Assembly: GCA_029237815.1 (NCBI GenBank) | Contig: JAQZBP010000002.1 | Span: 206,917 to 270,916, forward strand | Direction: 5' to 3' | Source of the DNA: Moraxellaceae bacterium | GTDB taxonomy: Bacteria; Pseudomonadota; Gammaproteobacteria; Pseudomonadales; Moraxellaceae | DNA length: 64,000 nt | In this document: positions 1,419 to 34,191 of the stretch, in pieces | Layout: every line of letters begins with the position of its first letter | Numbering within the stretch: the stretch's first letter is position 1 | The notes under the pieces: generated by a model | Told to the model about the DNA's origin: nothing | What the model saw: only the letters and a program-made list of their open reading frames with translations | Database searches by the model: none | Translations under genes and position numbers: made by a program

Positions 1419-2453
1419 TCATTCAGTTTTCGATTCGCGAGTTGCAGGAGCTTCAGCACAACCGAAGCGACGCTCGATCAGCGCCGGCACATTTTTCTCG
1501 ACCTCAAGTACAGCCACACGTAGCGCCTGGGCAAATGCATCGGCATCCGCTCCGCCATGGCTCTTGACGACGATTCCAGTCAGCCCCACGAGGCTGGCGC
1601 CGTTATAACGACCCGGATCCATGCGATGGCGCAGTCCCTGCCAGACCGGGTATGCCAGCGCCCCAGTCAAGCGAGTCAGCCAGTTTCGACCGATTTCTTC
1701 CTTGATCATGCCTGCCAGCATCTTGGCGACGCCTTCCGACGCCTTCAGTGCGACATTCCCCACGAAGCCGTCACAGACCACCACGTCGGCCTGCCCCTTG
1801 AACACGCCGTCGCCCTCCACATAACCGATGTAATTCAGGCCAGACTGTCTCAACAGTTCGTCCGCCCGCTTGATCAGCTCATTACCCTTGATTTCTTCCT
1901 CACCGATATTGAGCAGGCCCACTCGCGGATGCTCGATACCGTCAAGCGCCTCCGCCACGACTGAGCCCATCTGGGCAAACTGGAGCAAGTGCTCCGGCTG
2001 GGAGTCGACGTTAGCGCCGAGATCCAGCATGTGAACATGGCCTTTAGTCGTAGGCAAAGCAGTGAGGATGGCAGGACGATCGATATTCGCATGGGTCTTC
2101 AGCACAAAGCGGCTGATCGCCATGAGGGCGCCGGTATTACCAGCCGAAACACAGGCTTGAACCGCCCCCTCTTGCACAAGGTTGATGGCGAGGCGCATCG
2201 ACGACTGCCTCTTTTGACGCAACGCGACAGCCACCTTGTCATCCATCGCAACGACTTCAGAGGTGTGGAGCACGGTTGTGCGCAAGCGCTCAGAAGGCGC
2301 GAGTCTAGACAGGAAGGGAGCTATTATTGATTCGTCGCCGACGAGCGTCAGGCGGAGGGAGGGATTTTCACGCAGCACCGCTAGTGTAGCGGGAACCGTG
2401 ACGCGGGGACCGAAGTCCCCGCCCATGGCATCGACGGCAATCGCGATGCTCAT
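1419..2453 (-). CDS. plsX: phosphate acyltransferase PlsX
   Basis: 344-aa ORF starting MSIAIAVDAMGGDFGP, the typical PlsX N-terminus. Directly downstream of rpmF. Confidence 0.9.
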   Translation of the reverse strand: MSIAIAVDAMGGDFGPRVTVPATLAVLRENPSLRLTLVGDESIIAPFLSRLAPSERLRTTVLHTSEVVAMDDKVAVALRQKRQSSMRLAINLVQEGAVQACVSAGNTGALMAISRFVLKTHANIDRPAILTALPTTKGHVHMLDLGANVDSQPEHLLQFAQMGSVVAEALDGIEHPRVGLLNIGEEEIKGNELIKRADELLRQSGLNYIGYVEGDGVFKGQADVVVCDGFVGNVALKASEGVAKMLAGMIKEEIGRNWLTRLTGALAYPVWQGLRHRMDPGRYNGASLVGLTGIVVKSHGGADADAFAQALRVAVLEVEKNVPALIERRFGCAEAPATRESKTE

Positions 2454-2464
2454 TGGATGACGGC

Positions 2465-2647
2465 TTATTCTTCGTCTTTGCTCGCGAACAGCTGGCGGCC
2501 ACGATACAGGCCATCCTTGGTCACGTGGTGACGAAGATGCACTTCACCGGACTCCTGATCCACCGACAGGGTGGGACCGGTCAGCGCATCGTGCGCGCGG
2601 CGCATGTCGCGGCGGGAACGGCTCTTGCGGTTTTGTTGAACGGCCAT
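2465..2647 (-). CDS. rpmF: 50S ribosomal protein L32
   Basis: 60-aa [25 protein letters not shown], the L32 signature. Conserved yceD-rpmF-plsX order. Confidence 0.9.
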
Positions 2648-2675
2648 GGTTTACTCCGGCACAAATATTGTTGGT

Positions 2676-3204
2676 TTACTCTTTCTCGGTGCGGCCCTTG
2701 AGCGAGGCCAGCACCTCAAACGGATTTTCGCGCTTGGGCGCTTCCACTTCAGCATCCTCGGACTCTGCCACCGGATACACCACACAATTCTCATGCATGG
2801 GAGCCAGCGGTAGCGCCAGAATCAGCTCATCCTCGAGAGCGTCGGCCAAGTCAATTCGGCCGTCTTCATCGAGAACCAGAAAATCAGCGTCGTCCGGCAG
2901 TCGATCCGCTCGCGCTTCATCGCGTAGGAGCCAGAGCTGAACGTCCGCCTTGATGTCAGTAGCGGCAGGCTCAAGGCATCGCTGGCAGATCAGGTTTATG
3001 GTGGTGGCCATATGCCCGTCCACTACAAACAATCCTTGCGCGTCACGATGCAACTGAACCTTTACCGCTACTTCGCCTCTATCATCGGCCGCCCCTTCCG
3101 TAAGACGAGCGAAGGCGGAAAGCGGAAAGACCTGTTCGATCGTCGCTTCACGGTCCGCCCATTTCTGGACATCGATGTACTGAGGCAGGGTGCCGGCTGA
3201 CATA
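2676..3204 (-). CDS. yceD: YceD/DUF177 protein, large ribosomal subunit accumulation
   Basis: ORF in frame with the listed 2676..3347 ORF. Start chosen at the internal ATG (3202-3204, MSAGTLPQYIDVQKW..) to give the typical ~175 aa. Contains the CQRC..C motif and an acidic C-terminus, upstream of rpmF. Confidence 0.75.
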
Positions 3205-3291
3205 GGCGCGCGATAATACGAGCAGACAGAAGGCGTGTCAAAAGGAAAACCCTTGTTTTTAATACACTCTTGAAAGGAGGCACTCACGCCC

Positions 3292-3882
3292 ATGCCCACC
3301 CACGCGCCGAACCTTCTTCTGGCCTCATCCTCCCCCGCCAGACGCATGCTGCTGGAAAGGCTAGGCCTGCCCTTCCGGTGTCAAAGTCCTGATGTCGATG
3401 AAACGCCATTGCCCGAGGAGTCCGCCGTGGACCTGGTCAGGCGACTGAGCGAAGCCAAGGCTCGCGCCCTGCAAGCAGCCTTTCCCGACTGCCTGATCAT
3501 TGGTTCGGACCAGGCCTTGCAACTGGACGGGGGCATTCTGGGAAAGCCCGGCAGGCACGATGCTGCAATGACTCAGCTGAAGCGCCTATCAGGGCGCACC
3601 GCCACCTTCCACACCGGACTTTGCCTTCTCAACGTCCAGGCCAACAGACTTCACCTGCTAACCGAGCCCTTCACGGTCCACTTCCGCGACCTCGATAAAG
3701 CCACCATAGAGCGCTACCTGGCGGCAGAAGAACCCTACGGCTGCGCCGGCAGCTTTAAAGCAGAGGGACTGGGAATTAGCCTTTTCAGGAGGTTTGAGGG
3801 AAGGGACCCAAGCAGTCTGATAGGGCTGCCGCTCATGGCCCTTGTTGACATGCTCCACGCAGAGGGAATCTCCGTTCCCTGA
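3292..3882 (+). CDS. maf: Maf-like nucleoside triphosphate pyrophosphatase (YceF type)
   Basis: 196-aa ORF with LLLASSSPARRMLLERLGLPF and GSDQAL..DG motifs of the Maf family. Divergent from yceD as in enterics and pseudomonads. Confidence 0.85.
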   Translation: MPTHAPNLLLASSSPARRMLLERLGLPFRCQSPDVDETPLPEESAVDLVRRLSEAKARALQAAFPDCLIIGSDQALQLDGGILGKPGRHDAAMTQLKRLSGRTATFHTGLCLLNVQANRLHLLTEPFTVHFRDLDKATIERYLAAEEPYGCAGSFKAEGLGISLFRRFEGRDPSSLIGLPLMALVDMLHAEGISVP

Positions 3883-7017: not shown

Positions 7018-7650
7018 TCAATAAGCTGGCGGCGATATATGTGGCCGAACTGCAATCCTGCTGCTATATTAACCTGTCGCTTGCAGAACCGGCCGCCCGG
7101 CCTACCCACTGAGGGAACCGCCAGAAGGGCCGCCGATTGTACAGAAGGTGCGTACAGGTGTCGCGAGCGGCTGCCCTGTCACAAGACACAAGAAAACCCG
7201 TTGCCGTTCTCCTACAGACCGGGACCGGGCGCAGCCGCTACCCGCCTCATCATCTTCGTTAACTGCCAGCGCCACACCCTGCCGGACCAGCAACTCGACG
7301 GACTTCATGCCTCAAAGGCAGGTTGATCCGCATCACATGCATCTCCAGCAGGGTTTAAGAAGCAGACTGAGAGCCACCGTCGTAGCGCTCATGCAATCAA
7401 AGGCGCGCGACGCGAAACACGGCAAAAAGCCTGCAATCCGGGGCGGCTAGTCCGCCTGTTGCCACCATTTGCACAAAGGCAAGTGGAACGCCGTCGGATA
7501 GCGGAACGAATTCAAGGAAATGCCCAGGCATTTCCGCGCCGGAGGGCAGCGCTGATTGCGCGACAGGCCATAAGCCGTCCCCCTCTGGCGATGTGATGAG
7601 CGTATTTATTGTTACTGCGTGTCCAGTTGCATCTAGCCTGCACGCAGTAT

Positions 7651-7679
7651 CACAGCACTCCTCATGAGGAGTGCTGTGG
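7651..7679 (+). promoter_or_regulatory. near-perfect 14-bp-stem hairpin in the rne 5' leader; candidate RNase E autoregulatory stem-loop
   Basis: The sequence cacagcactcctcatgaggagtgctgtg is palindromic and lies about 65 nt upstream of the rne start. Confidence 0.4.
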
Positions 7680-7743
7680 ACGTCACGACAGTCCGCTACC
7701 GGCGGTGTTCTGTGCCAAAGTGCCGGAGCCCGTTGGGTAGAAC

Positions 7744-10608
7744 ATGAAACGCATGCTGATCAATGCCACGCACGCCGAAGAAAAGCGCGTCGCGATGGTT
7801 GATGGACAAAGACTTTACGATTTCGATCTCGAGCACACTGCTCGCGAGCAGAAAAAAGCCAATATCTACAAGGGCAAGGTGACGCGCGTCGAGCCCAGCC
7901 TCGAAGCCGCCTTCATCGATTACGGTGCCGAACGCCACGGCTTCCTGCCCTTGAAAGAAATCGCCCGCGAATACTTCAGCAAGTCGCCCAAAGAAGCCGG
8001 CGGCCGCATCACCATTCGTGACGCCATCCGCGAAGGCCAGGAAATCATTGTCCAGGTCGAGAAAGAAGAGCGTGGCAACAAGGGTGCCGCCCTCTCCACC
8101 TTCATCTCGCTGGCGGGCCGTTACCTTGTCCTGATGCCCAACAATCCCCGTGCCGGCGGCATTTCCCGCCGTATCGAGGGAGAGGAACGGCAGGAACTCA
8201 AGGACGCTCTCAACGCCATCAACATTCCGCAGGACATGGGCGCCATTGTCCGCACCGCCGGCCTTGGCCGCAGTGCCGAGGAGCTGCAGTGGGACCTCGA
8301 TTACCTGCTGACGCTGTGGACCTCCATCAAGGCCGCCAGCGAGCGCCCTGCCCCTTTCCTGATCTATCAGGAATCCAACGTCATCATTCGCGCCGTGCGC
8401 GACTATCTGCGCCAGGACATCAATGAAGTCCTGATCGATGCCGAACCCGCCTATAACGAGGCCATGAGCTTTGTGCAGCAGGTGATGCCGCACTATCAGC
8501 AGAAGCTCAAGCTGTACAAGGACTCCGTCCCCCTCTTCAACCGCTACCAGGTTGAAGGCCAGATCGAGACCGCCTACCAGCGCGAAGTGAAGCTGCCCTC
8601 CGGCGGCTCCATCGTGATCGACCCGACCGAAGCGCTGGTCTCCATCGATATCAACTCCTCGCGCGCCACCAAGGGTGGCGACATCGAGGAGACCGCGCTC
8701 AACACCAACCTGGAAGCAGCAGACGAAATCGCCCGCCAGCTGCGCCTGCGTGATATCGGCGGCCTCATCGTCATCGACTTCATCGACATGACGCCGGTCA
8801 AGCACCAGCGTGCCGTTGAGGATCGCCTGCGTGACGCCCTGGCCATGGACCGCGCCCGCATCCAGATGGGCCGCATCTCCAAGTTCGGCCTGCTGGAGCT
8901 CTCCCGCCAGCGCCTGCGTCCGTCACTGGAAGAAACCACCGGCCTCGTCTGCCCGCGTTGCAACGGCACCGGCGTGATCCGTGACGTGCGTTCGCTGGCG
9001 CTGTCCATCATGCGCGTGATCGAGGAGGAGGTGCTCAAGGAGCGCTCCGCCCAGATCAATGCGCAGGTGCCTATCTCCGTGGCCACCTTCCTGCTCAATG
9101 AAAAGCGCGGAGCGCTCACGCAGCTCGAGACCCGCAGTGGCGTGCGCATCGTCATCCTGCCCAACGAGCACCTCGAGACGCCGCATTACGAAGTCTCGCG
9201 CCTGCGCGATGACCAGATCGAAGAAGGCGACGAGGACACCGCCAGCTTCAAGCTGGTGGAGCGCATCCAGCCGCCGGCCAATGAAGAAGTGCTGAACTCC
9301 GTCGAGGACGCGCCGCGCCGGCAGGAAGCGGCTGTCAAGATGATCCAGCCGGGCCAGGCGCCCGCGCCGCGCCAAGCTCCGGCGGCCCCGGCCCCGGCCC
9401 CGGCGCCGGCAGCAGTCGCTCCGGCTCCTGCCGTGGCAGATGCCAGCAAGCAGGGCTTCTTCGCATGGCTGACCAACCTGTTCGGCAGCGGCGAGAAGGA
9501 AGCCCCGGTCGTCGCCGAGGCTCCCAAGAAGCAGGAAGGCCGCCAGCGCCAGCGTAGCGAGGGTCGTCGTGACGGCAACCGCCAGAATGGTCGCGGTCGC
9601 GGTGAGCGTGACCGCAACGAACGCAGCGACCGTAGCGATCGCATCGAGACCGTCGGGCAGCGCGAGCAGCGCGAGTCCCGCCAGGAGCGGGGCGAGCGTC
9701 AGGGTGGCGAGACCAATCGTCGTACCGTGATCGAGGGTCGTCGCGTCGAGATCGAAGGACGCGCAGAGGGTGAGCAGCGAGAAACGCGCGAGCCCCGGCA
9801 GCCGCGTGAGCCTCGCGAAAACCGCGAGCCGCGTGAACCTCGTGAGCCCCGCGAACAGCGTGAACCTCGCGAGCCCCGCGGCGAACGCGGCCCGCGTCCG
9901 GAACGTGAACCGCGCCCGCGTCGCGAAGAGGCCGATGCCACGGCTCCCGTTGCTGCAACGGAAGTAGTCGCGGTTGAAGGCGAGCAGCGCGTCGAAGGGG
10001 ACCGCCCCCGTCGTCGCGGTCGCCACCCCAATCGCCGCCAGCGCGGTCCGCGCGAGCGCGACCAGCAGGTGCTGATTGAGGAAGGCCTGATCCCGGCGGA
10101 AGGCGGAGCACAAGCCGCAGCAACTCCCGTCGAAGCAACAGTGGCAGCCGAGATCCTGGCTGAGACGCTTCCTCAGGAAAACGCTGCAGCTGAAGCCGCC
10201 TCGACTGATCTGCCGCGTCCAGCAAGCATTGAGGTCGCTGAAGTTGCGCCGCTGCTGCCCGCGGCAGAAGCAGAAGATCAGCCCGCTACAACTGCTCCTG
10301 GAGCGGTGGTGAGCATGACGATCAGCGCCGATACCACCACTTCGGCCATCGAAGCACCGGTCTACACACCACGCGCACCGGGCCGGGCCGCAAACGACCC
10401 GCGCGAGCGTCGTCGTCGCGAGCAGGCTAACATGCAGACGTCACAGTCGGCGGCCGCACCTGCACCGGAAGTGGCGGTGACGCCAGCCACCGCGGAAACG
10501 TCTGCTCATGCAGAGGCAGATGTTGTGCAGGCTACTTCGGTAACTTCTACCGACACGACGCCGACCTCCATCGTTGAGGGAACTTCGTCGGAGCCAGCGG
10601 AGCGCTAG
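7744..10608 (+). CDS. rne: ribonuclease E
   Basis: 954-aa ORF starting [30 protein letters not shown] (S1 and catalytic domains), with a long Arg/Glu/Pro-rich non-catalytic C-terminal half. Confidence 0.95.
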
Positions 10609-29083: not shown

Positions 29084-30682
29084 TCACAGAGCGGTGACGG
29101 CGCCCCAGTCCAGGCCGAAGCGCGCCAGGTACTTGCGCAGGCGGTCAGTATCGTTGGGCGTGCTGCGCCTCTCTCGGCTGCGCGCAAACAGGCGGCGTCC
29201 GGCCTCGGCCAGGCTCCCGCATTCGCGACAAACTTCCACCACATGCTCGAGCTGGACACGATCGAAGTCGTCAAGCGTTGCCAGCAGCGCCACCGGCAAG
29301 ACGGCGCTAGTTCCCTCTCCCGTCGTCGCCTCGCCCGAAGGCCGCTCCCAGGCCATGCGCAGACGCTGGATCTCGCGTTCCACCGTGGCGGTGGTGATGC
29401 GCCCACTGGCGGCCAGCGCCGCCATTCGCCGCACCGACGCATAAAGATCTCGAAAGTTGCCGTGCCAGGGTGCGGCCGCCGACAACGCAAAGCCCAGGTA
29501 ATGCGCCTTCGCCTCCCGGTTGAAGCGCACCAGCCGCCCCTCGCGCTCGGCGAAACGCTCCAGCTCGTAGTCGACGTTGGGCTCGATATCCTCCCGCCGA
29601 CGCGCGAGCCCGGGCAGATGGAAGGTCCAGACATTGAGGCGGGCAAACAAATCCTCGCGAAAGCGGCCCCGCGCCACGTCCACACGCAGGTCGCGGTTGG
29701 TGCCGGCGATGAGCTGGAACTCCGAACGCACGTCACGATCAGCGCCCATCGGCAGGAAGGTCTTTTCCTCCAGCGCCTTGAGCAGCATGGCCTGCTCGTC
29801 GAGGCCGAGCTCGCCGATCTCGTCGAGGAAGAGTTGGCCGCCGTCGGCACGCTTGAGCAGGCCCTCGCGCGCGCTGGCTGCACCGGTGAAAGCTCCCTTC
29901 GCATGACCGAATAGCGTGCTCATGGCGGTATCCCCACGCAGCGTGGCGCAGTTCACTTCAACGAAGTCGCCACGGAACTGGTGACGCTGGCGCTTCAGCT
30001 CGTAAAGACGCCGCGCCAGATGCGATTTGCCGGCGCCAGTGGGGCCGATCAGCAGCAGCGGTTCGCGCGAGCCGATGGCCACCTGTTCCATCTCGTCGAT
30101 CATGGCGTTGAAGGCGGCGTTACGCGTGGCGATGCCTGCCTTAAGATGACTGACCGCGTCCTCTTTCTCGCGCGCAAAGCGCTCGGCCAAGCGATCATAG
30201 CGGGAGAGGTCGAGGTCGATGACGGTGCAGCTGCCCCCCGGCCCCTCTCCGTCACGTGGCGGCGAAGTCTGCAGTATGCGCGCGGGCAGGTAACGGCTCT
30301 CGGTCAGCAGGAACCAACAGATCTGCGCCACATGCGTGCCGGTGGTGAGGTGAACCAGGTAGTCCTCCTCTTGCGTGCGGAAGGGATAGGCGCGCACGAA
30401 GTCGTGCAGCTTGGCGTAGACCTCCTCGAAGTCCCAGGGATCGCGGAAGTACATGTCGTGAACCACCAGCTCGATCGTGGGCGCGATTTCGGCGATATCC
30501 GCCTGCACCTGGGCCAGCAAGCGCGAGCTGCGGCGACGGTCGCAGAGCAGCTCGATGCGGTCGACGCCGAGCGCGGCCTGATGGGCGATGCCGACCGTGG
30601 GCCGCCAGTGCTTCTTGCGCTCCTCACCCTTGCCGCGGGCGTCGAGCTGGGTGCCGAGGAAGCCAATGACGACAGTTTTCAT
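29084..30682 (-). CDS. rtcR: sigma54-dependent transcriptional activator RtcR (CARF-AAA+-HTH)
   Basis: N-terminal 180 aa align closely with the E. coli RtcR CARF domain (VIGFLGT..WRPT..DRIELL..HDMYFRDPWDFEEVYAKLHDF..EEDYLVHLTTGTHVAQICWFLL..RYLPARILQTSPP). It is followed by the AAA+ sigma54-interaction domain (GPTGAGKS, GAFTGA) and a C-terminal HTH. Confidence 0.9.
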   Translation of the reverse strand: MKTVVIGFLGTQLDARGKGEERKKHWRPTVGIAHQAALGVDRIELLCDRRRSSRLLAQVQADIAEIAPTIELVVHDMYFRDPWDFEEVYAKLHDFVRAYPFRTQEEDYLVHLTTGTHVAQICWFLLTESRYLPARILQTSPPRDGEGPGGSCTVIDLDLSRYDRLAERFAREKEDAVSHLKAGIATRNAAFNAMIDEMEQVAIGSREPLLLIGPTGAGKSHLARRLYELKRQRHQFRGDFVEVNCATLRGDTAMSTLFGHAKGAFTGAASAREGLLKRADGGQLFLDEIGELGLDEQAMLLKALEEKTFLPMGADRDVRSEFQLIAGTNRDLRVDVARGRFREDLFARLNVWTFHLPGLARRREDIEPNVDYELERFAEREGRLVRFNREAKAHYLGFALSAAAPWHGNFRDLYASVRRMAALAASGRITTATVEREIQRLRMAWERPSGEATTGEGTSAVLPVALLATLDDFDRVQLEHVVEVCRECGSLAEAGRRLFARSRERRSTPNDTDRLRKYLARFGLDWGAVTAL

Positions 30683-30785: not shown

Positions 30786-30830
30786 TTTTTCATTAGCTTG
30801 CCTCTGAACACCTCCTTCTTTCGCCAATGC

Positions 30831-30846
30831 TGGCACGCCCCTCGCT
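30831..30846 (+). promoter_or_regulatory. sigma54 (-24/-12) promoter of the tRNA-mimic/SPFH/rtcB operon
   Basis: TGGCACGccccTcGCT against the consensus TGGCACGnnnnTTGCW, with correct GG-N10-GC spacing. Divergent from rtcR. Confidence 0.6.
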
Positions 30847-30984: not shown

Positions 30985-31054
30985 GGGTTTGTAGCTCAGG
31001 GGTAGAGCAGCGGCTTCGGCCGTGGACGCGGGTTCGAGTCCCGCCAGACCACCA
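30985..31054 (+). ncRNA. tRNA-like RNA 1: cloverleaf whose anticodon arm is replaced by a cUUCGg tetraloop hairpin; encoded 3' CCA
   Basis: Acceptor GGTTTG/CAGACC (6 bp), U8A9, D-arm GCTC-AGGGGTA-GAGC, hairpin GCGGC-TTCG-GCCGT, variable GGAC, T-arm GCGGG-TTCGAGT-CCCGC, then ACCA. Confidence 0.6.
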
Positions 31055-31126
31055 CTGTTGTAGCTCAGTCGGGTAGAGCACCGATCTAAACCGTCGGCTG
31101 TCGCGGGTTCGATTCCCGCCAACACC
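31055..31126 (+). ncRNA. tRNA-like RNA 2: pseudo-tRNA with a 7-nt anticodon loop CUAAACC (anticodon AAA, C37), imperfect acceptor stem, no encoded CCA
   Basis: Acceptor TGTTG/CAACA (5 bp plus a C:C mismatch), D-arm GCTC-AGTCGGGTA-GAGC, anticodon stem CCGAT/GTCGG, variable CTGTC, T-arm GCGGG-TTCGATT-CCCGC. It starts 1 nt after RNA 1. Confidence 0.55.
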
Positions 31127-31394
31127 GCGTTAACCACGCGATCTGAAAAACCGAGAAGGCGATGCCGTGTCGCCGGTCCGGGACGAGGTGGAGGCCAAGC
31201 CAGAATGGCTGGCCAATGCCCCGCCCCGGGCCACCCGGCCAGAGGCCGGCCGACACGTCGCCGCGGGACCGGCGCACCGGAGGCGATTGCTCCGGTCGCC
31301 CGCCCCGCGGCCACCCGAGGCCCCCGCTGTCCGGGGGCGGCACGGCAAAGCCCGATCACTTGATGACAATGAAGAACAGCAAGGAAGAAAGAAG

Positions 31395-32606
31395 ATGAAC
31401 ACGAAGACCAACACCCGAATGAATTCCCTGGACCCGCGTTGCAAGACCGTCCTCGGCGCTTGGAAGACCTGGCGCGTCGAGGCCGACGAGCGCGGCCTGC
31501 TGTACCGCTACGACACCCCCGTCGCCGTGCTGCGCGCCGGCGAGCACCGCTTCTTCGATCCGCTCGGCAAGCTGCGCGCGGAAGTCTCGACGCTGAGCCA
31601 GCCGCTGTTCCGCTCCGCCCAGGAAGACTGGCTGCGCGCGGAACGCCGCGAATGGCTGGAGACCGAGTGGCAGGCGGTGGAGACCGGCGCCGATGAGCTG
31701 GCCTGGGTGCGCTACAACGGCAAGCTTGCCGACGTGCTGCCGCCCCGGACCCGCGCGCTGTACTGGCGCGGCTTCGTGGAGGTGAGCGTGGAGCGCGTGG
31801 ATCTTTCAGCGACGCTCGAGGTGGCCCCGGCGCTGCTGCGCGAGCTCGCCAACACGAGCTTCGTGGGCGCGCACGCCTCACCGGCCCAGGTCGTGATGCA
31901 GGTGGAAGTGCCGTCTTATGCGGTGGGCGTACTGACCGTCGACGACGGCGAAGCGCGCCTGCTGACACCGGGCCGCTACGGGTTCTACCGCACCGGTCGC
32001 AACATCGGCTTCCAGACTGCGGACACGCGCGAGCAGGCGCTGGAAATCAGCGGCCAGGAAATCCTGACCGCGGACAAGGTGGCGCTGCGCGTGACCGTGG
32101 GCGTGAGCTGGAAGGTGGCGGACGTGCTGGCCTGCCAGCGCGAACTGGCCAAGCCGGGCGAGCACCTGTACCGCGAGGTGCAGTTCGCGCTGCGCCAGGT
32201 GGTGGGTACGCGCTCGCTGGACACGCTGCTGGAAGACAAGACCGCGCTGGACCGCGAGGTGCTGGAGCTGGTGAAGCCCCGGCTGGAGGGCCAGGGCCTG
32301 GCCGTTGTGCGGGTGGGGGTGAAGGACATCATCCTGCCCGGCGACATGAAGGCCATCCTGACCCGGGTGGTGGAGGCCGAGAAGGCCGCTCTGGCGAACG
32401 TGATCCGTCGCCGTGAGGAAACCTCTGCGACCCGCTCGCTGCTGAACACCGCCAAGGTCATGGAGGACAACCCGGTGGCGCTGCGCCTGAAGGAGCTGGA
32501 AACGCTGGAACGCATCACCGACAAGATCGGCAACATCTCGGTCTACGGTGGCCTGGAAGGCGTGCTGCAGGATTTGGTGAAACTGGCACCGGCGAGCAAG
32601 CAATGA
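31395..32606 (+). CDS. SPFH/band-7 (stomatin/prohibitin-like) domain protein with a novel ~180-aa N-terminal domain, no TM segment
   Basis: C-terminal half has the SPFH core (..VRVGVKDIILPGDMKAILTRVVEAEKAALANVIRRREETSATRSLLNTAKVMEDNPVALRLKELETLERI..). Start at the ATG at 31395 preceded by AAGGAAGAAAGAAG. The upstream in-frame stretch of the 479-aa listed ORF is low complexity. Confidence 0.8.
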   Translation: MNTKTNTRMNSLDPRCKTVLGAWKTWRVEADERGLLYRYDTPVAVLRAGEHRFFDPLGKLRAEVSTLSQPLFRSAQEDWLRAERREWLETEWQAVETGADELAWVRYNGKLADVLPPRTRALYWRGFVEVSVERVDLSATLEVAPALLRELANTSFVGAHASPAQVVMQVEVPSYAVGVLTVDDGEARLLTPGRYGFYRTGRNIGFQTADTREQALEISGQEILTADKVALRVTVGVSWKVADVLACQRELAKPGEHLYREVQFALRQVVGTRSLDTLLEDKTALDREVLELVKPRLEGQGLAVVRVGVKDIILPGDMKAILTRVVEAEKAALANVIRRREETSATRSLLNTAKVMEDNPVALRLKELETLERITDKIGNISVYGGLEGVLQDLVKLAPASKQ

Positions 32607-32685
32607 CCCGTGCCGGGCGGCAGGACGCCGCCCGGTGCGGAACTCCCTCGGCAAGATGAGAGGAATGACCAAGCACAGGCTTTTG

Positions 32686-32900
32686 CAGGGCTGAGCGCGA
32701 AATGGCGAGCGGCCGGCAAAAGTGTTTACGTAGCCGGTGAAGGGTAAAACCGACGGCATTGGCGGCAGCCGGTAATTTGAGGATGCAGCCCCGGGGTCCG
32801 AGCAAGGTTCCGAGGGTGTCGCGCGTTTAAAGGACTGCCGCACGCGGGAGTAATGCCCCGTGGCTGCCTATTGCGGGTTCGAGTCCCGCCAGCCCTGCCA
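32686..32900 (+). ncRNA. roughly 215-nt structured RNA with an 8-bp terminal stem, a T-arm identical to tRNA-like RNA 1, and a 3' CCA (Y-RNA-like)
   Basis: 5' CAGGGCTG pairs with 3' CAGCCCTG-CCA. The T-arm GCGGG-TTCGAGT-CCCGC precedes the 3' strand. An inner stem GCGCGA/TCGCGC and several GC-rich hairpins lie between. The RNA sits in the 358-bp gap between the SPFH gene and rtcB. Confidence 0.45.
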
Positions 32901-32964: not shown

Positions 32965-34191
32965 ATGGACCATACGCATGAAATCTGGCAGCCGGCGCCG
33001 CAAAGCCGGCCCATCAAGATGTGGACCTCGGGCGTGCCCGTGGAAGCCGAGGCCCGCGCCCAGCTTGCCAACATCGCGCAGCTGCCCTTCGTATTCCGGC
33101 ACGTGGCGGTGATGCCCGACGTGCACCTGGGCAAGGGCGCGACCGTAGGCTCGGTGATCCCCACCAAGGGCGCCATCATCCCTGCCGCCGTGGGGGTGGA
33201 CATCGGCTGCGGGATGATCGCCGCGCTCACCTCGCTCACGGCCAAGGACCTGCCGGACAACCTGCAGGGCCTGCGCGCCGCCATCGAGCGCGCCGTGCCG
33301 CATGGCCGCAGCGTGGGCCGCGGCAAGCGCGACGAAGGAAGCTGGAGCAATCCGCCCGCCGAGGCGCTGGCGGCCTGGTCGACCCTGGCCGACGGCTTCA
33401 GGGCCATCACGGAAAAGCATCCGCGCCTGAAGAACACCAACAACGTGCAGCACCTGGGAACGCTGGGGACCGGCAACCACTTCATCGAGATCTGCCTGGA
33501 CGAGGCCGACCGCGTCTGGTTCATGCTGCATTCGGGGTCGCGCGGGGTGGGCAATGCCATCGGGACCCACTTCATCGAGCTGGCCAAGGCGGACATGCGC
33601 CGCCACTTCATCAACCTGCCCGACCAGGACCTCGCCTACCTGCCGGAAGGGACTCAGCACTTCGAGGACTACTGGCAGGCGGTGGACTGGGCGCAGCGCT
33701 TCGCCATGAAGAACCGCGAGGTGATGATGGGAGCAGTGGTACGCGCCGTCGGCGCCGCGCTCGGGAAGCCGTTCTCGGCAACGCAGGAGGGGGTGAACTG
33801 CCACCACAACTACGTGTCGCGCGAGCGCCACTTCGGCGAGGACGTGCTGGTGACACGCAAGGGCGCGGTGAGCGCGAAGGAAGGCGAGCTCGGGATCATT
33901 CCGGGATCCATGGGCGCCCGCTCCTACATCGTGCGCGGCAAGGGCAACCCGGAGTCGTTCTGCTCCTGCAGCCACGGCGCGGGGCGCGTCATGAGCCGCA
34001 CCAAGGCCAAGGCGCAGTTCACGCTGGAGGACCACCGCCGCATGACCGCGCACGTGGAATGCCGCAAGGACGCGGCGGTGATCGACGAGACCCCGGCGGC
34101 CTACAAGGACATCGAGGCCGTGATCGCCGCCCAGGCCGATCTGGTCGAGGTGGTGCATACCTTGCGGCAGGTGGTGTGCGTGAAAGGCTGA
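32965..34191 (+). CDS. rtcB: RNA-splicing ligase RtcB (3'-phosphate/5'-hydroxy nucleic acid ligase)
   Basis: 408-aa ORF with KMWTSGVPVEAEA, MPDVHLGKG, GTGNHF, NCHHNY and CSHGAGR, all hallmark RtcB motifs. Confidence 0.95.
   Translation: MDHTHEIWQPAPQSRPIKMWTSGVPVEAEARAQLANIAQLPFVFRHVAVMPDVHLGKGATVGSVIPTKGAIIPAAVGVDIGCGMIAALTSLTAKDLPDNLQGLRAAIERAVPHGRSVGRGKRDEGSWSNPPAEALAAWSTLADGFRAITEKHPRLKNTNNVQHLGTLGTGNHFIEICLDEADRVWFMLHSGSRGVGNAIGTHFIELAKADMRRHFINLPDQDLAYLPEGTQHFEDYWQAVDWAQRFAMKNREVMMGAVVRAVGAALGKPFSATQEGVNCHHNYVSRERHFGEDVLVTRKGAVSAKEGELGIIPGSMGARSYIVRGKGNPESFCSCSHGAGRVMSRTKAKAQFTLEDHRRMTAHVECRKDAAVIDETPAAYKDIEAVIAAQADLVEVVHTLRQVVCVKG

Follow-up and report, generated by a model that had tools for sequence, protein, structure and literature searches.

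A tRNA-like RNA with a giant variable-arm domain, encoded between a slipin gene and rtcB, represents a previously uncatalogued RNA family

In a Moraxellaceae bacterium, a gene for a Band-7/SPFH protein (slipin) is separated from rtcB by a gap in which the JGI gene calls for the source contig (metagenome 3300042904) place nothing. The question raised by this locus is what the gap encodes. We analyzed it within a stretch of 64,000 nucleotides (positions 206,917 to 270,916 of contig JAQZBP010000002.1, assembly GCA_029237815.1), called the window in what follows. An initial annotation had proposed that the gap holds a discrete, structured tRNA mimic with an acceptor stem, a T-arm and a 3' CCA, and this proved correct. 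The RNA is 214 nt long, lies on the + strand at 32687-32900 and belongs to a previously uncatalogued RNA family, which is real and conserved. About 60 homologues, ranging from 151 to 246 nt, were found in phage contigs, in metagenomes, in one betaproteobacterial genome and in 22 cultured Streptomyces phages (loci and contigs are designated below as L005, L113 and so on). Covariation showed that the RNA folds into a full cloverleaf, in which a branched domain of about 110 nt occupies the position of the variable arm. We refer to it as the giant-arm RNA.

Membership in the family was determined with a covariance model, R2, which was built from 12 homologues and from which the window was excluded. 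R2 matched 32687-32900 from end to end (model positions 1-223, i.e. the full model) with a score of 119.7 bits (E = 1.6e-32), while the two neighbouring tRNA-sized RNAs, RNA 1 and RNA 2, scored 24 and 21 bits, respectively. The same model recognised 44 members at E < 1e-8. An nhmmer profile made from two phage members also matched positions 32774-32895 (E = 3.4e-9), and the T-arms of RNA 1 and RNA 2 only with E = 0.2-0.4. Two other models were discarded. Model R1, made from eight short phage forms, had captured generic tRNA features; it gave the tRNA-Asn of the window a higher score (30 bits) than the giant-arm RNA (15.8 bits, partial match) and was unusable as a membership test. A hidden Markov model (HMM) restricted to the core, made from phage members selected by pattern, found L005 (E = 1e-12) and missed the window even without filters, as it was over-trained on the fixed pattern.

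None of the known families that we searched accounted for the RNA. At gathering thresholds, Rfam 15 detected in the window the two tRNA-likes and tRNA-Asn only, with nothing at the RNA, and when E values up to 10 were accepted, the only match inside the RNA was a T-arm-like match to mascRNA (E = 5.2). ARAGORN predicted neither a tRNA nor a tmRNA at 32687-32900; with no tmRNA match from Rfam either, the conclusion of the initial annotation that this is not ssrA stands. One short relative, L113, scored 38.9 bits with the tRNA model. The YrlA model (RF02553) gave no match at 32687-32900 at E values up to 10. Its single match in the window (31007-31104, 39 bits) runs from the T-arm of RNA 1 into the D-arm of RNA 2. 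We rejected it as a dimeric-tRNA artefact, since Chen et al. warned that dimeric tRNAs give this type of false positive with YrlA. Family members lacked annotation wherever this could be checked, and we found no paper in the literature describing the giant-arm RNA family.

The ends of the RNA are those of a tRNA. The 5' strand of the acceptor stem, AGGGCUG (32687-32693), pairs with CAGCCCU (32890-32896), which is followed by the discriminator G32897 and by an encoded CCA (32898-32900). The T-arm, GCGGG-UUCGAGU-CCCGC (32873-32889), abuts the 3' strand and corresponds to helix 11 in the covariation analysis of 44 sequences. The RNA has, then, the 7-bp acceptor stem, discriminator, CCA and 5-bp T-stem with a T-psi-C-type loop of a canonical tRNA. 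Covariation across homologues, including the terminal stem, had been named as a check of the initial annotation; in the 44 sequences, all seven acceptor pairs showed compensatory changes and 99.7% of the cells were paired. The terminal stem had been described as an 8-bp helix of CAGGGCTG (32686-32693) and CAGCCCTG (32890-32897). These two strands are complementary in the window, but the conserved stem comprises 7 bp (32687-93/32890-96) and then the discriminator. The eighth pair, C32686:G32897, is absent in L005, the sole relative in which the base at -1 was read (A opposite G73), and R2 treats position 73 as unpaired and begins its match at 32687.

The T-arm was also correctly reported to be identical to that of RNA 1: the same 17-mer, GCGGGTTCGAGTCCCGC, is found at 31028-31044. 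It is also found in L005, L212, L218 and L221. The RNA had been suggested to be a local paralogue of RNA 1, which it is not: this T-arm agrees with the family consensus at 14 of 17 positions, and the family itself is independent and widespread.

Between its ends the RNA is not a simple insertion into a minihelix. The initial annotation was right about the acceptor stem, the T-arm and the CCA, but a D-arm and an anticodon-like arm are present as well, and the insertion is found at the variable-arm position. Throughout the family there are five branches, namely a D-arm with GG in its loop, an anticodon-like arm of 4-6 bp, a hairpin with a GUAAAA loop, the giant domain and the T-arm, with linkers of two nt after the 5' strand of the acceptor stem and of three to five nt before the T-arm. 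The D-arm of the window (32696-32711) has a stem C10-C12/G23-G25 (32696-98/32709-11), a G13.A22 apposition and a loop, AAAUGGCG, containing G18G19, as found with RNAalifold on four window-type sequences. This arrangement, CGC(G)-AAAUGGCG-(A)GCG, is that of a canonical tRNA D-arm with G18G19. The D helix (helix 2) co-varies family-wide; for instance, L213 shows a compensatory change from CGC/GCG to GGC/GCC. An inner stem that had been proposed earlier, GCGCGA (32695-700)/TCGCGC (32819-24), exists in the window only and is absent from the relatives, and its 5' half belongs to the D-arm; we therefore abandoned it.

The anticodon-like arm (32712-32738) consists of a co-varying stem (helix 3), GCCGGC/GCCGGU (32712-17/32733-38), and of a 15-nt loop, AAAAGUGUUUACGUA (32718-32). 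The stem reads CCGGC/GCCGG in the window and CACCU/AGGUG in L005. The 7-nt loop with U33 and a readable anticodon that characterises a canonical tRNA is lacking: the loop is 15 nt in the window and 8-16 nt in the family, with the consensus AAAACGG. With such a loop, the window RNA cannot decode. Next comes a small hairpin (32739-32754) with the conserved GUAAAA loop and a GG/CC stem (32742-43/32750-51), which is found in most long forms and co-varies (helix 4).

The giant domain (32755-32868) is branched and, in the long forms, is made of its own closing helix, a long arm and a hairpin with the loop AGUAAUGC, while the short phage forms of about 155 nt have the single long arm only. In the window, the closing helix is GGCA/UGCC (32755-58/32865-68); among members it varies in sequence yet remains complementary (GGCGAGCU/AGUUCGUC, UGGCAGU/AUUGUCA, CAGUCAA/UUGGCUG). 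It encloses the core arm (32762-32841) and the second hairpin (32843-32862). The core arm has an outer helix, GCGGCAGCC/GGACUGCCGC, in which 10 of 10 pairs show compensatory change, a conserved core, UUUGAGGAUGCAGCC ... GAGGGUGUCGCGCGUUUAAAGG, and a terminal hairpin. The family consensus of the core is GGUUGCGGAUGCACCGAA ... UAGGGAAGCGCGUUUCCAA, with the hairpin between the two parts, and the CC/GG pair of the core arm is replaced by a GG/CU-type pair in half of the long forms. The second hairpin, CGCGGG-AGUAAUGC-CCCGUG, has a 6-bp stem that co-varies (helix 10). The search patterns account for part of the conservation of its loop: where the pattern used had left this hairpin out, the members retrieved often lacked it or had an altered loop (UAAG in L180, GGUAAUGC in L185).

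Several other motifs that we considered fit the sequences incompletely or not at all. A core hairpin UGC-GGAU-GCA (with the variants AGAA, AGAG and GGAA) is broken in the window (UGA...GCA) and in L252 (UAC...GCA). GGUCCGA, present in the window and in L005, is also the Ro-binding heptamer of vertebrate Y RNAs; we rejected this identification, as the motif is located in a terminal hairpin and is GGGUCUGCG in the closest relatives, L212 and L221. Likenesses noted by eye to the 3' end of 16S rRNA (GGAUCACC, GUAGGGGAA), to kink-turns and to loop-E motifs did not fit the pairing pattern.

Further evidence for the five-branch structure came from folding and from covariation. In constrained minimum free energy (MFE) predictions, the layout arose unaided in 12 of 18 long forms, i.e. 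in the window and in 11 of the 17 others. When 12 long forms were aligned with MAFFT, 82.5% of the cells of the 64 pairs were paired, compared with 68.3% in shuffled and 38-47% in slid controls, and 37 pairs changed on both sides (24.3 in shuffles; 0/500). With 44 sequences fitted to the model, the paired fraction was 83.6%, compared with 59.3% (shuffled) and 38-46% (slid), and 55 of the 64 pairs were compensatory (614 cells, about 200 in shuffles). RNAalifold on the four window-type sequences yielded 53 pairs, of which 19 were compensatory, the D-stem included. The window sequence taken singly was much less informative. Its MFE was -92.4 kcal/mol, compared with -88.2 +/- 4.9 for shuffles (z = -0.86), although the terminal stem and the T hairpin did form, and the opposite strand folded no better than the RNA strand. 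Because of this weak single-sequence evidence, the case for the RNA rests on the homologues.

The anticodon-like loop may be engaged in an additional pairing. In the family, the loop sequence AAAACG is complementary to CGUUUU, found 3' of GAAGCG. In the window, the loop segment AAAAGUG (32718-32724) is predicted to pair with CGCGUUU (32822-32828) through six pairs and one A.G. Among 22 sequences, this pairing was formed in 88.5% (15-61% in slid controls), with three of six pairs changing on both sides, and the covariation was 0.191, compared with 0.083 in shuffles (0/500). Examples recognised by eye are AACAUG/CGUGUU in L102, CAACG/CGUUG in L210 and, with a matched insertion, AAAAGCG/CGCUUUU in L168. 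This suggests a pseudoknot in which the partner of the anticodon-like loop is the big arm's 3' strand. The evidence is good but not conclusive, because a nested helix that never varies competes with the pairing. If true, the pairing would bury the anticodon-like loop and fold the big arm back along the anticodon-like arm.

The extent of the family was determined by searching with the neighbouring protein and with the RNA itself. The slipin protein was used to fetch 80 loci from species-representative genomes. One of these, from Betaproteobacteria bacterium GR16-43, carried a homologue (L005:2391-2613, nhmmer E = 4.7e-9; CP019169, about 438293-438515, minus strand), in the order rtcB, RNA, tRNA-likes, slipin gene. 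Its acceptor stem, GCGUCUG/CAGGCGC, is different yet complementary and is followed by G-CCA. R2 applied to 86 slipin loci matched L005 alone. The closest slipin relatives (77% identity; L084 and L085) have a slipin-rtcB gap of 98 nt and no RNA. We also noted that the gap is used differently elsewhere: in the Pseudomonas loci L015, L034, L047 and L052 it measures about 470-660 nt and holds no RNA and a conserved Cys-rich open reading frame (ORF) of about 120 aa (MKSGKQRRREIK...C.DC...RC..CR, zinc-ribbon-like), and in other slipin loci it contains an ORF of about 300 aa.

Searches of IMG/VR phage contigs with patterns derived from blocks common to the window and L005 retrieved clear members. A core pattern (GCGGATGCAC...GAAGCGCG) added about 20 IMG/VR members of 151-246 nt, all within phage tRNA arrays, and Rfam detected tRNAs only in these loci; a third pattern yielded about 10 further members. 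In metagenomes, a pattern based on the RNA only returned 24 loci, 17 of which contained the RNA, 16 as complete long forms of 206-225 nt. All 16 complete forms end in G/A73-CCA, and all rtc-linked members encode the CCA. The 22 cultured Streptomyces phages have the RNA unannotated or under 'hypothetical protein' calls; four 'tRNA-Leu' labels in cultured phages belong to the neighbouring gene and not to the RNA. The RNA is at about 81034-81188 in phage Francob (PP537961) and at about 8130-8287 in phage Alone3 (OR725492). BLAST of the long forms against plasmids and cultured phages gave no match.

Some variants deserve mention. A shorter and AT-richer subtype of 181-183 nt (L091:5354-5534 and L095:5699-5881; 91 and 67 bits with R2) has the core CGGGAUGNCUG in place of GCGGAUGCACC. 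One phage contig, L168, apparently carries two copies about 5 kb apart (7548-7790 and 2157-2396). Two IMG/VR contigs (L099, region 435-471, and L100:2193-2273) have tRNA-like genes of normal length with CCA ends that contain GGAGUAAUGCCCC. In L100, this sequence forms a 9-nt loop at the anticodon position, AGUAAUGCC, which includes the 8-nt loop of the hairpin of the giant-arm RNA (32849-56); in L099 the stem is irregular.

We next consider the genes around the RNA. Upstream and on the - strand is rtcR (29084-30682; Pfam RtcR, E = 2.8e-77, and Sigma54_activat), the divergent sigma-54 activator of the operon. Between rtcR and the genes for the RNA, slipin and RtcB, we read a sigma-54-type promoter-like element on the + strand, CTGGCAC-N5-TCGCT (30830-30846), from which the transcript carrying the RNA presumably starts. 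It is followed on the + strand by the tandem tRNA-sized tRNA-like RNAs, RNA 1 (30985-31053) and RNA 2 (31054-31128), each with 48 bits for Rfam tRNA and detected by ARAGORN; RNA 1 has a UUCG tetraloop in place of its anticodon loop. The slipin gene (+ strand, Pfam Band_7) starts either at ATG 31395, as in the JGI call of 403 aa, or at GTG 31167 and ends at 32606. The protein has no obvious N-terminal membrane segment and may be cytosolic, and Pfam matched no family in its N-terminal region of about 170 aa. Directly past the slipin stop codon there is a perfect GC-rich hairpin without a U tract, GUGCCGGGCGGC-AGGAC-GCCGCCCGGUGC (32610-32638). Placed as it is between slipin and the RNA, this hairpin might have a part in processing or in stability. 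The rtcB gene, for the RNA 3'-phosphate ligase, starts 64 nt 3' of the RNA (32965-34191, + strand; Pfam RtcB, E = 8.5e-134; same call on the source contig). Neither rtcA nor rsr is present in the gene order of this operon. Co-transcription of the RNA with rtcB, another proposal of the initial annotation, is consistent with its lying on the rtcB strand and with the lack of any terminator-like site on the + strand before 35541, including the interval from the promoter-like element to rtcB.

The same kind of neighbourhood recurs at loci found by the RNA sequence alone. Of 16 metagenomic loci, 9 had an adjacent rtcB gene in the same orientation; the RNA was upstream of it in L217, L223, L221 and L207 and downstream in L215, L226, L213, L220 and L224. 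Among these rtcB-linked loci, three have a slipin/Band-7 gene and one (L215) has rtcR. Five metagenomic loci are in or beside tRNA arrays. In the phage contigs L108, L174 and L113, the RNA is 40-320 nt upstream of a gene for a Ro-like protein. We observed that these proteins (L113:3540-5207, L108:68-838 and L174:1259-1840) share 37-45% identity with gp37 of Streptomyces phage Alone3; in that phage the RNA is 3 kb from gp37, annotated as 'Ro-like RNA binding protein'. L180 encodes a Ro60 confirmed by Pfam (TROVE and vWA_Ro60) 2.4 kb from the RNA. Of 20 neighbouring phage ORFs analyzed with Pfam, most matched no family, and the only repair gene was one Ro60. The RNA region of phage Francob and its relatives encodes a Band-7-like protein, an RNA ligase, a polynucleotide kinase and a tmRNA.

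Most of the 80 related loci have, 5' of the slipin gene, a tRNA-like pair akin to that at 30985-31128. Just upstream of this pair and of slipin (at about locus positions 1800-3800), many loci from Burkholderiales and relatives (L010, L012, L013, L014, L021, L024, L033, L046 and L066) have arrays of 5-12 tRNA or tRNA-like genes in which the CCA is encoded. Such Band-7/rtc arrays resemble the stress-induced tRNA 'L-arrays' of cyanobacteria, which are co-regulated with rtcB.

What the giant-arm RNA does is best approached by analogy. YrlA and the predicted b7a-tRNA both resemble tRNA and are encoded together with RtcB and with Ro60 or Band-7, and from them we consider it somewhat probable that the giant-arm RNA is a processed tRNA mimic serving as a scaffold or decoy in RNA repair by RtcB, Ro60 and Band-7 proteins. 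Transcription from an RtcR/sigma-54 promoter would cover it together with slipin and rtcB, and, to judge from its tRNA-like ends, it would be excised in the manner of a tRNA, by RNase P at the 5' end and by 3' trimming to the encoded CCA. The acceptor/T-arm minihelix and the G18G19 D-arm, whose secondary structure is established, would make up the upper body of a tRNA-like L. The lower half would be unlike tRNA, with the 15-nt loop paired, though less firmly established, with the 3' strand of the ~110-nt domain that replaces the variable arm. The tRNA-like half could then be presented to enzymes that handle tRNA (RtcB, anticodon nucleases, the CCA enzyme), while the conserved arm would bind a partner. 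In some phages this could be a Ro60-like protein, and in the present bacterium perhaps RtcB or the Band-7 protein, which may be cytosolic.

Several observations weigh against this interpretation. The RNA is dispensable for the module, as only 1 of 80 slipin loci carries it and the closest relatives of the operon do not. A tblastn search found no Ro60 homologue in the 64-kb window, so that the proximity to Ro60 typical of YrlA is lacking here, and for the member L212 no repair gene was present over a distance of 6.5 kb. The Ro-linked phage loci also contain YrlA-like candidates that score below threshold (34-42 bits). Ro60 may bind these in such phages rather than the giant-arm RNA, which is thus present in addition to them and need not be the phages' Y RNA. 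As for the window copy, its folding energy is not unusual (z = -0.86), its core is divergent and was missed by the core-only HMM from phage members, and its loop-arm pairing contains an A.G mismatch.

Two explanations would deprive the RNA of any role of its own. That it is a decayed tRNA gene with a functionless chance insertion could be argued from the identity of its T-arm with that of the neighbouring tRNA-like RNA and from its unremarkable folding energy, but about 60 homologues keep the inserted domain and 55 of 64 pairs are compensatory; this conservation and covariation refute the idea, to which we give practically no credence. Barely more credible is that the sequence acts in cis as an rtcB leader, for instance as a riboswitch, as a processing signal or in the manner of a T-box. 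The RNA is indeed 64 nt 5' of rtcB and on the same strand in the window, and it is likewise upstream in L217, L223 and L221. However, it is downstream of rtcB in L005, L215, L226, L213 and L220, and in phages and in L206, L208 and L218 its neighbours are tRNA genes, while the stretches examined showed no rtcB. This variable position largely refutes the leader hypothesis; the tRNA-type ends with an encoded CCA also speak against it.

The other alternatives retain a separate RNA and differ from the scaffold or decoy in RNA repair by what the tRNA-like body is for. It could be a decoy or sponge for nucleases that target tRNA (anticodon nucleases, VapC-type toxins, colicins), acting as an anti-defence RNA in phage tRNA arrays and, in bacteria, being expressed with RtcB to blunt self-inflicted damage to tRNA. 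The phage copies are found in tRNA arrays and the bacterial copies in or beside the tRNA arrays of rtc/Band-7 loci; the body is tRNA-like, with a non-canonical and sequestered anticodon-like loop; and there are precedents in the sponge role proposed for operon-encoded tRNAs and the inhibitor role proposed for YrlA. Yet a large conserved arm with co-varying helices would be superfluous for a simple decoy, the loop to be targeted appears to be paired, and no nuclease gene is consistently nearby. We regard this possibility as unlikely, though the strongest of the alternatives.

Less likely still is an aminoacylated mimic working on ribosomes, a tag-less relative of tmRNA that would be charged with alanine in many members and whose paired loop would let it enter an empty or damaged A site, rescuing ribosomes while RtcB repairs tRNA or rRNA. 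The combination G1-C72, G2-C71, G3.U70 and A73 is the identity set of AlaRS, also present in tmRNA. It was found in 13 of 36 members (e.g. L222:1945-2162, L217:3791-4014 and L221:771-982), in which the acceptor stem reads GGG.../...UCC-A-CCA and positions 4-7 vary freely; G.U at 3:70 was found in 11 of 43 aligned sequences. The CCA encoded by the rtc-linked members, the support for the loop-arm pairing and neighbourhoods suggestive of translation rescue (tRNA arrays, a tmRNA gene, RNA ligases) point in the same direction. On the other hand, the window copy lacks alanine identity (A1-U72, G3-C70, G73), acceptor identity is not uniform in the family, the RNA lacks both a reading frame and a resume codon, and an SmpB-like partner was not observed. 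An even bolder version, which we mention as a long shot, is that a chargeable CCA-ended mimic with its loop pre-paired to an internal 'codon-like' strand would be a self-contained A-site ligand working with RtcB, Ro60 or Band-7 proteins. It would then serve ribosome rescue or the restart of translation after ribotoxin damage, as a second, tag-less tmRNA-like RNA spread by phage tRNA arrays.

Damage to the translation machinery is the common thread that connects RtcB operons, Ro60/Y RNA particles and phage tRNA arrays. The loop-arm pairing and the alanine identity, if functional, could reveal a new use of tRNA mimicry in RNA repair or ribosome rescue. The family is a candidate for a new Rfam entry and fills gaps that are unannotated or labelled 'hypothetical protein' in phage genomes; because 22 cultured Streptomyces phages and one complete betaproteobacterial genome carry it, its role is directly testable.

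Comparison with class II tRNAs and with tmRNA places the RNA among large tRNA-like molecules. Like the class II tRNAs (Leu, Ser, Tyr, Sec), it has an extra helix between the anticodon arm and the T-arm and a discriminator G73 or A73. However, class II variable arms are 10-25 nt long, while those of the giant-arm family measure 60-150 nt and are branched and conserved in sequence, and the anticodon-like loop of the family is 8-16 nt, lacks U33 and is apparently base-paired. With tmRNA it shares an acceptor/T-arm minihelix with CCA set on a large structured insert, including a (here candidate) pseudoknot, and phage examples are found in the same regions. It differs from tmRNA by the lack of a tag reading frame, by the presence of a D-stem and an anticodon-like arm, and by its much smaller size.

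The closest parallel in kind is with YrlA (Chen et al. 2014, Wang et al. 2018), a tRNA mimic encoded with Ro60 and RtcB whose ends form the GNCGAAN0-1G Ro-binding stem, and for whose tRNA-like domain Hughes et al. proposed a role as competitive inhibitor. Both are non-coding tRNA mimics with a T-arm and a D-arm, in which a tRNA-like module is joined to a second helical module that binds protein in YrlA and may do so in the giant-arm RNA. YrlA occurs in rsr-yrlBA-rtcBA operons controlled by RtcR and in phages next to Ro60, a theme that is similar in the giant-arm family, except that the window has no rsr gene. Many giant-arm members have CCGAA(U)GG in the internal loop of the core, which resembles the GNCGAAN0-1G/'CGAA' motif bound by Ro60; phage Y-like RNAs are recognised by a CGAA-containing bulge between stems. 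Within the big arm, many relatives carry a CCGAAUGG-like element that the window copy lacks. YrlA is, however, circularly permuted with respect to tRNA, its ends being the Ro-binding stem and its 'acceptor' a closed stem-loop, whereas the giant-arm RNA has a true 7-bp acceptor stem with N73-CCA, an anticodon-like arm and its extra module at the variable-arm position. The Y-RNA-like architecture considered by the initial annotation thus describes the kind of RNA but not its ends, since these form an acceptor stem, and the RNA is not matched by the YrlA model.

Among other tRNAs linked to repair genes are the stress-induced arrays of cyanobacteria, which are co-regulated with rtcB, and sponge roles have been proposed for operon-encoded tRNAs. 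Nearest in genomic setting is the b7a-tRNA, a tRNA-sized RNA that Burroughs & Aravind (2016) are reported to have predicted beside Band-7 and RtcB and proposed to act in RNA ligation or repair. By this description, it is the tandem pair at 30985-31128 that corresponds to b7a-tRNA. The giant-arm RNA is likewise tRNA-like and flanked by slipin (31395-32606) and rtcB (32965-34191), but b7a-tRNA is described as strongly resembling an authentic tRNA, while the window RNA, with its 214 nt and its giant arm, is three times larger. The giant-arm RNA is therefore a new structural variant among the tRNA mimics associated with repair, a third and structurally the most elaborate class alongside YrlA and b7a-tRNA, and one that links RtcB, Ro60-like and Band-7 proteins across bacteria and phages.

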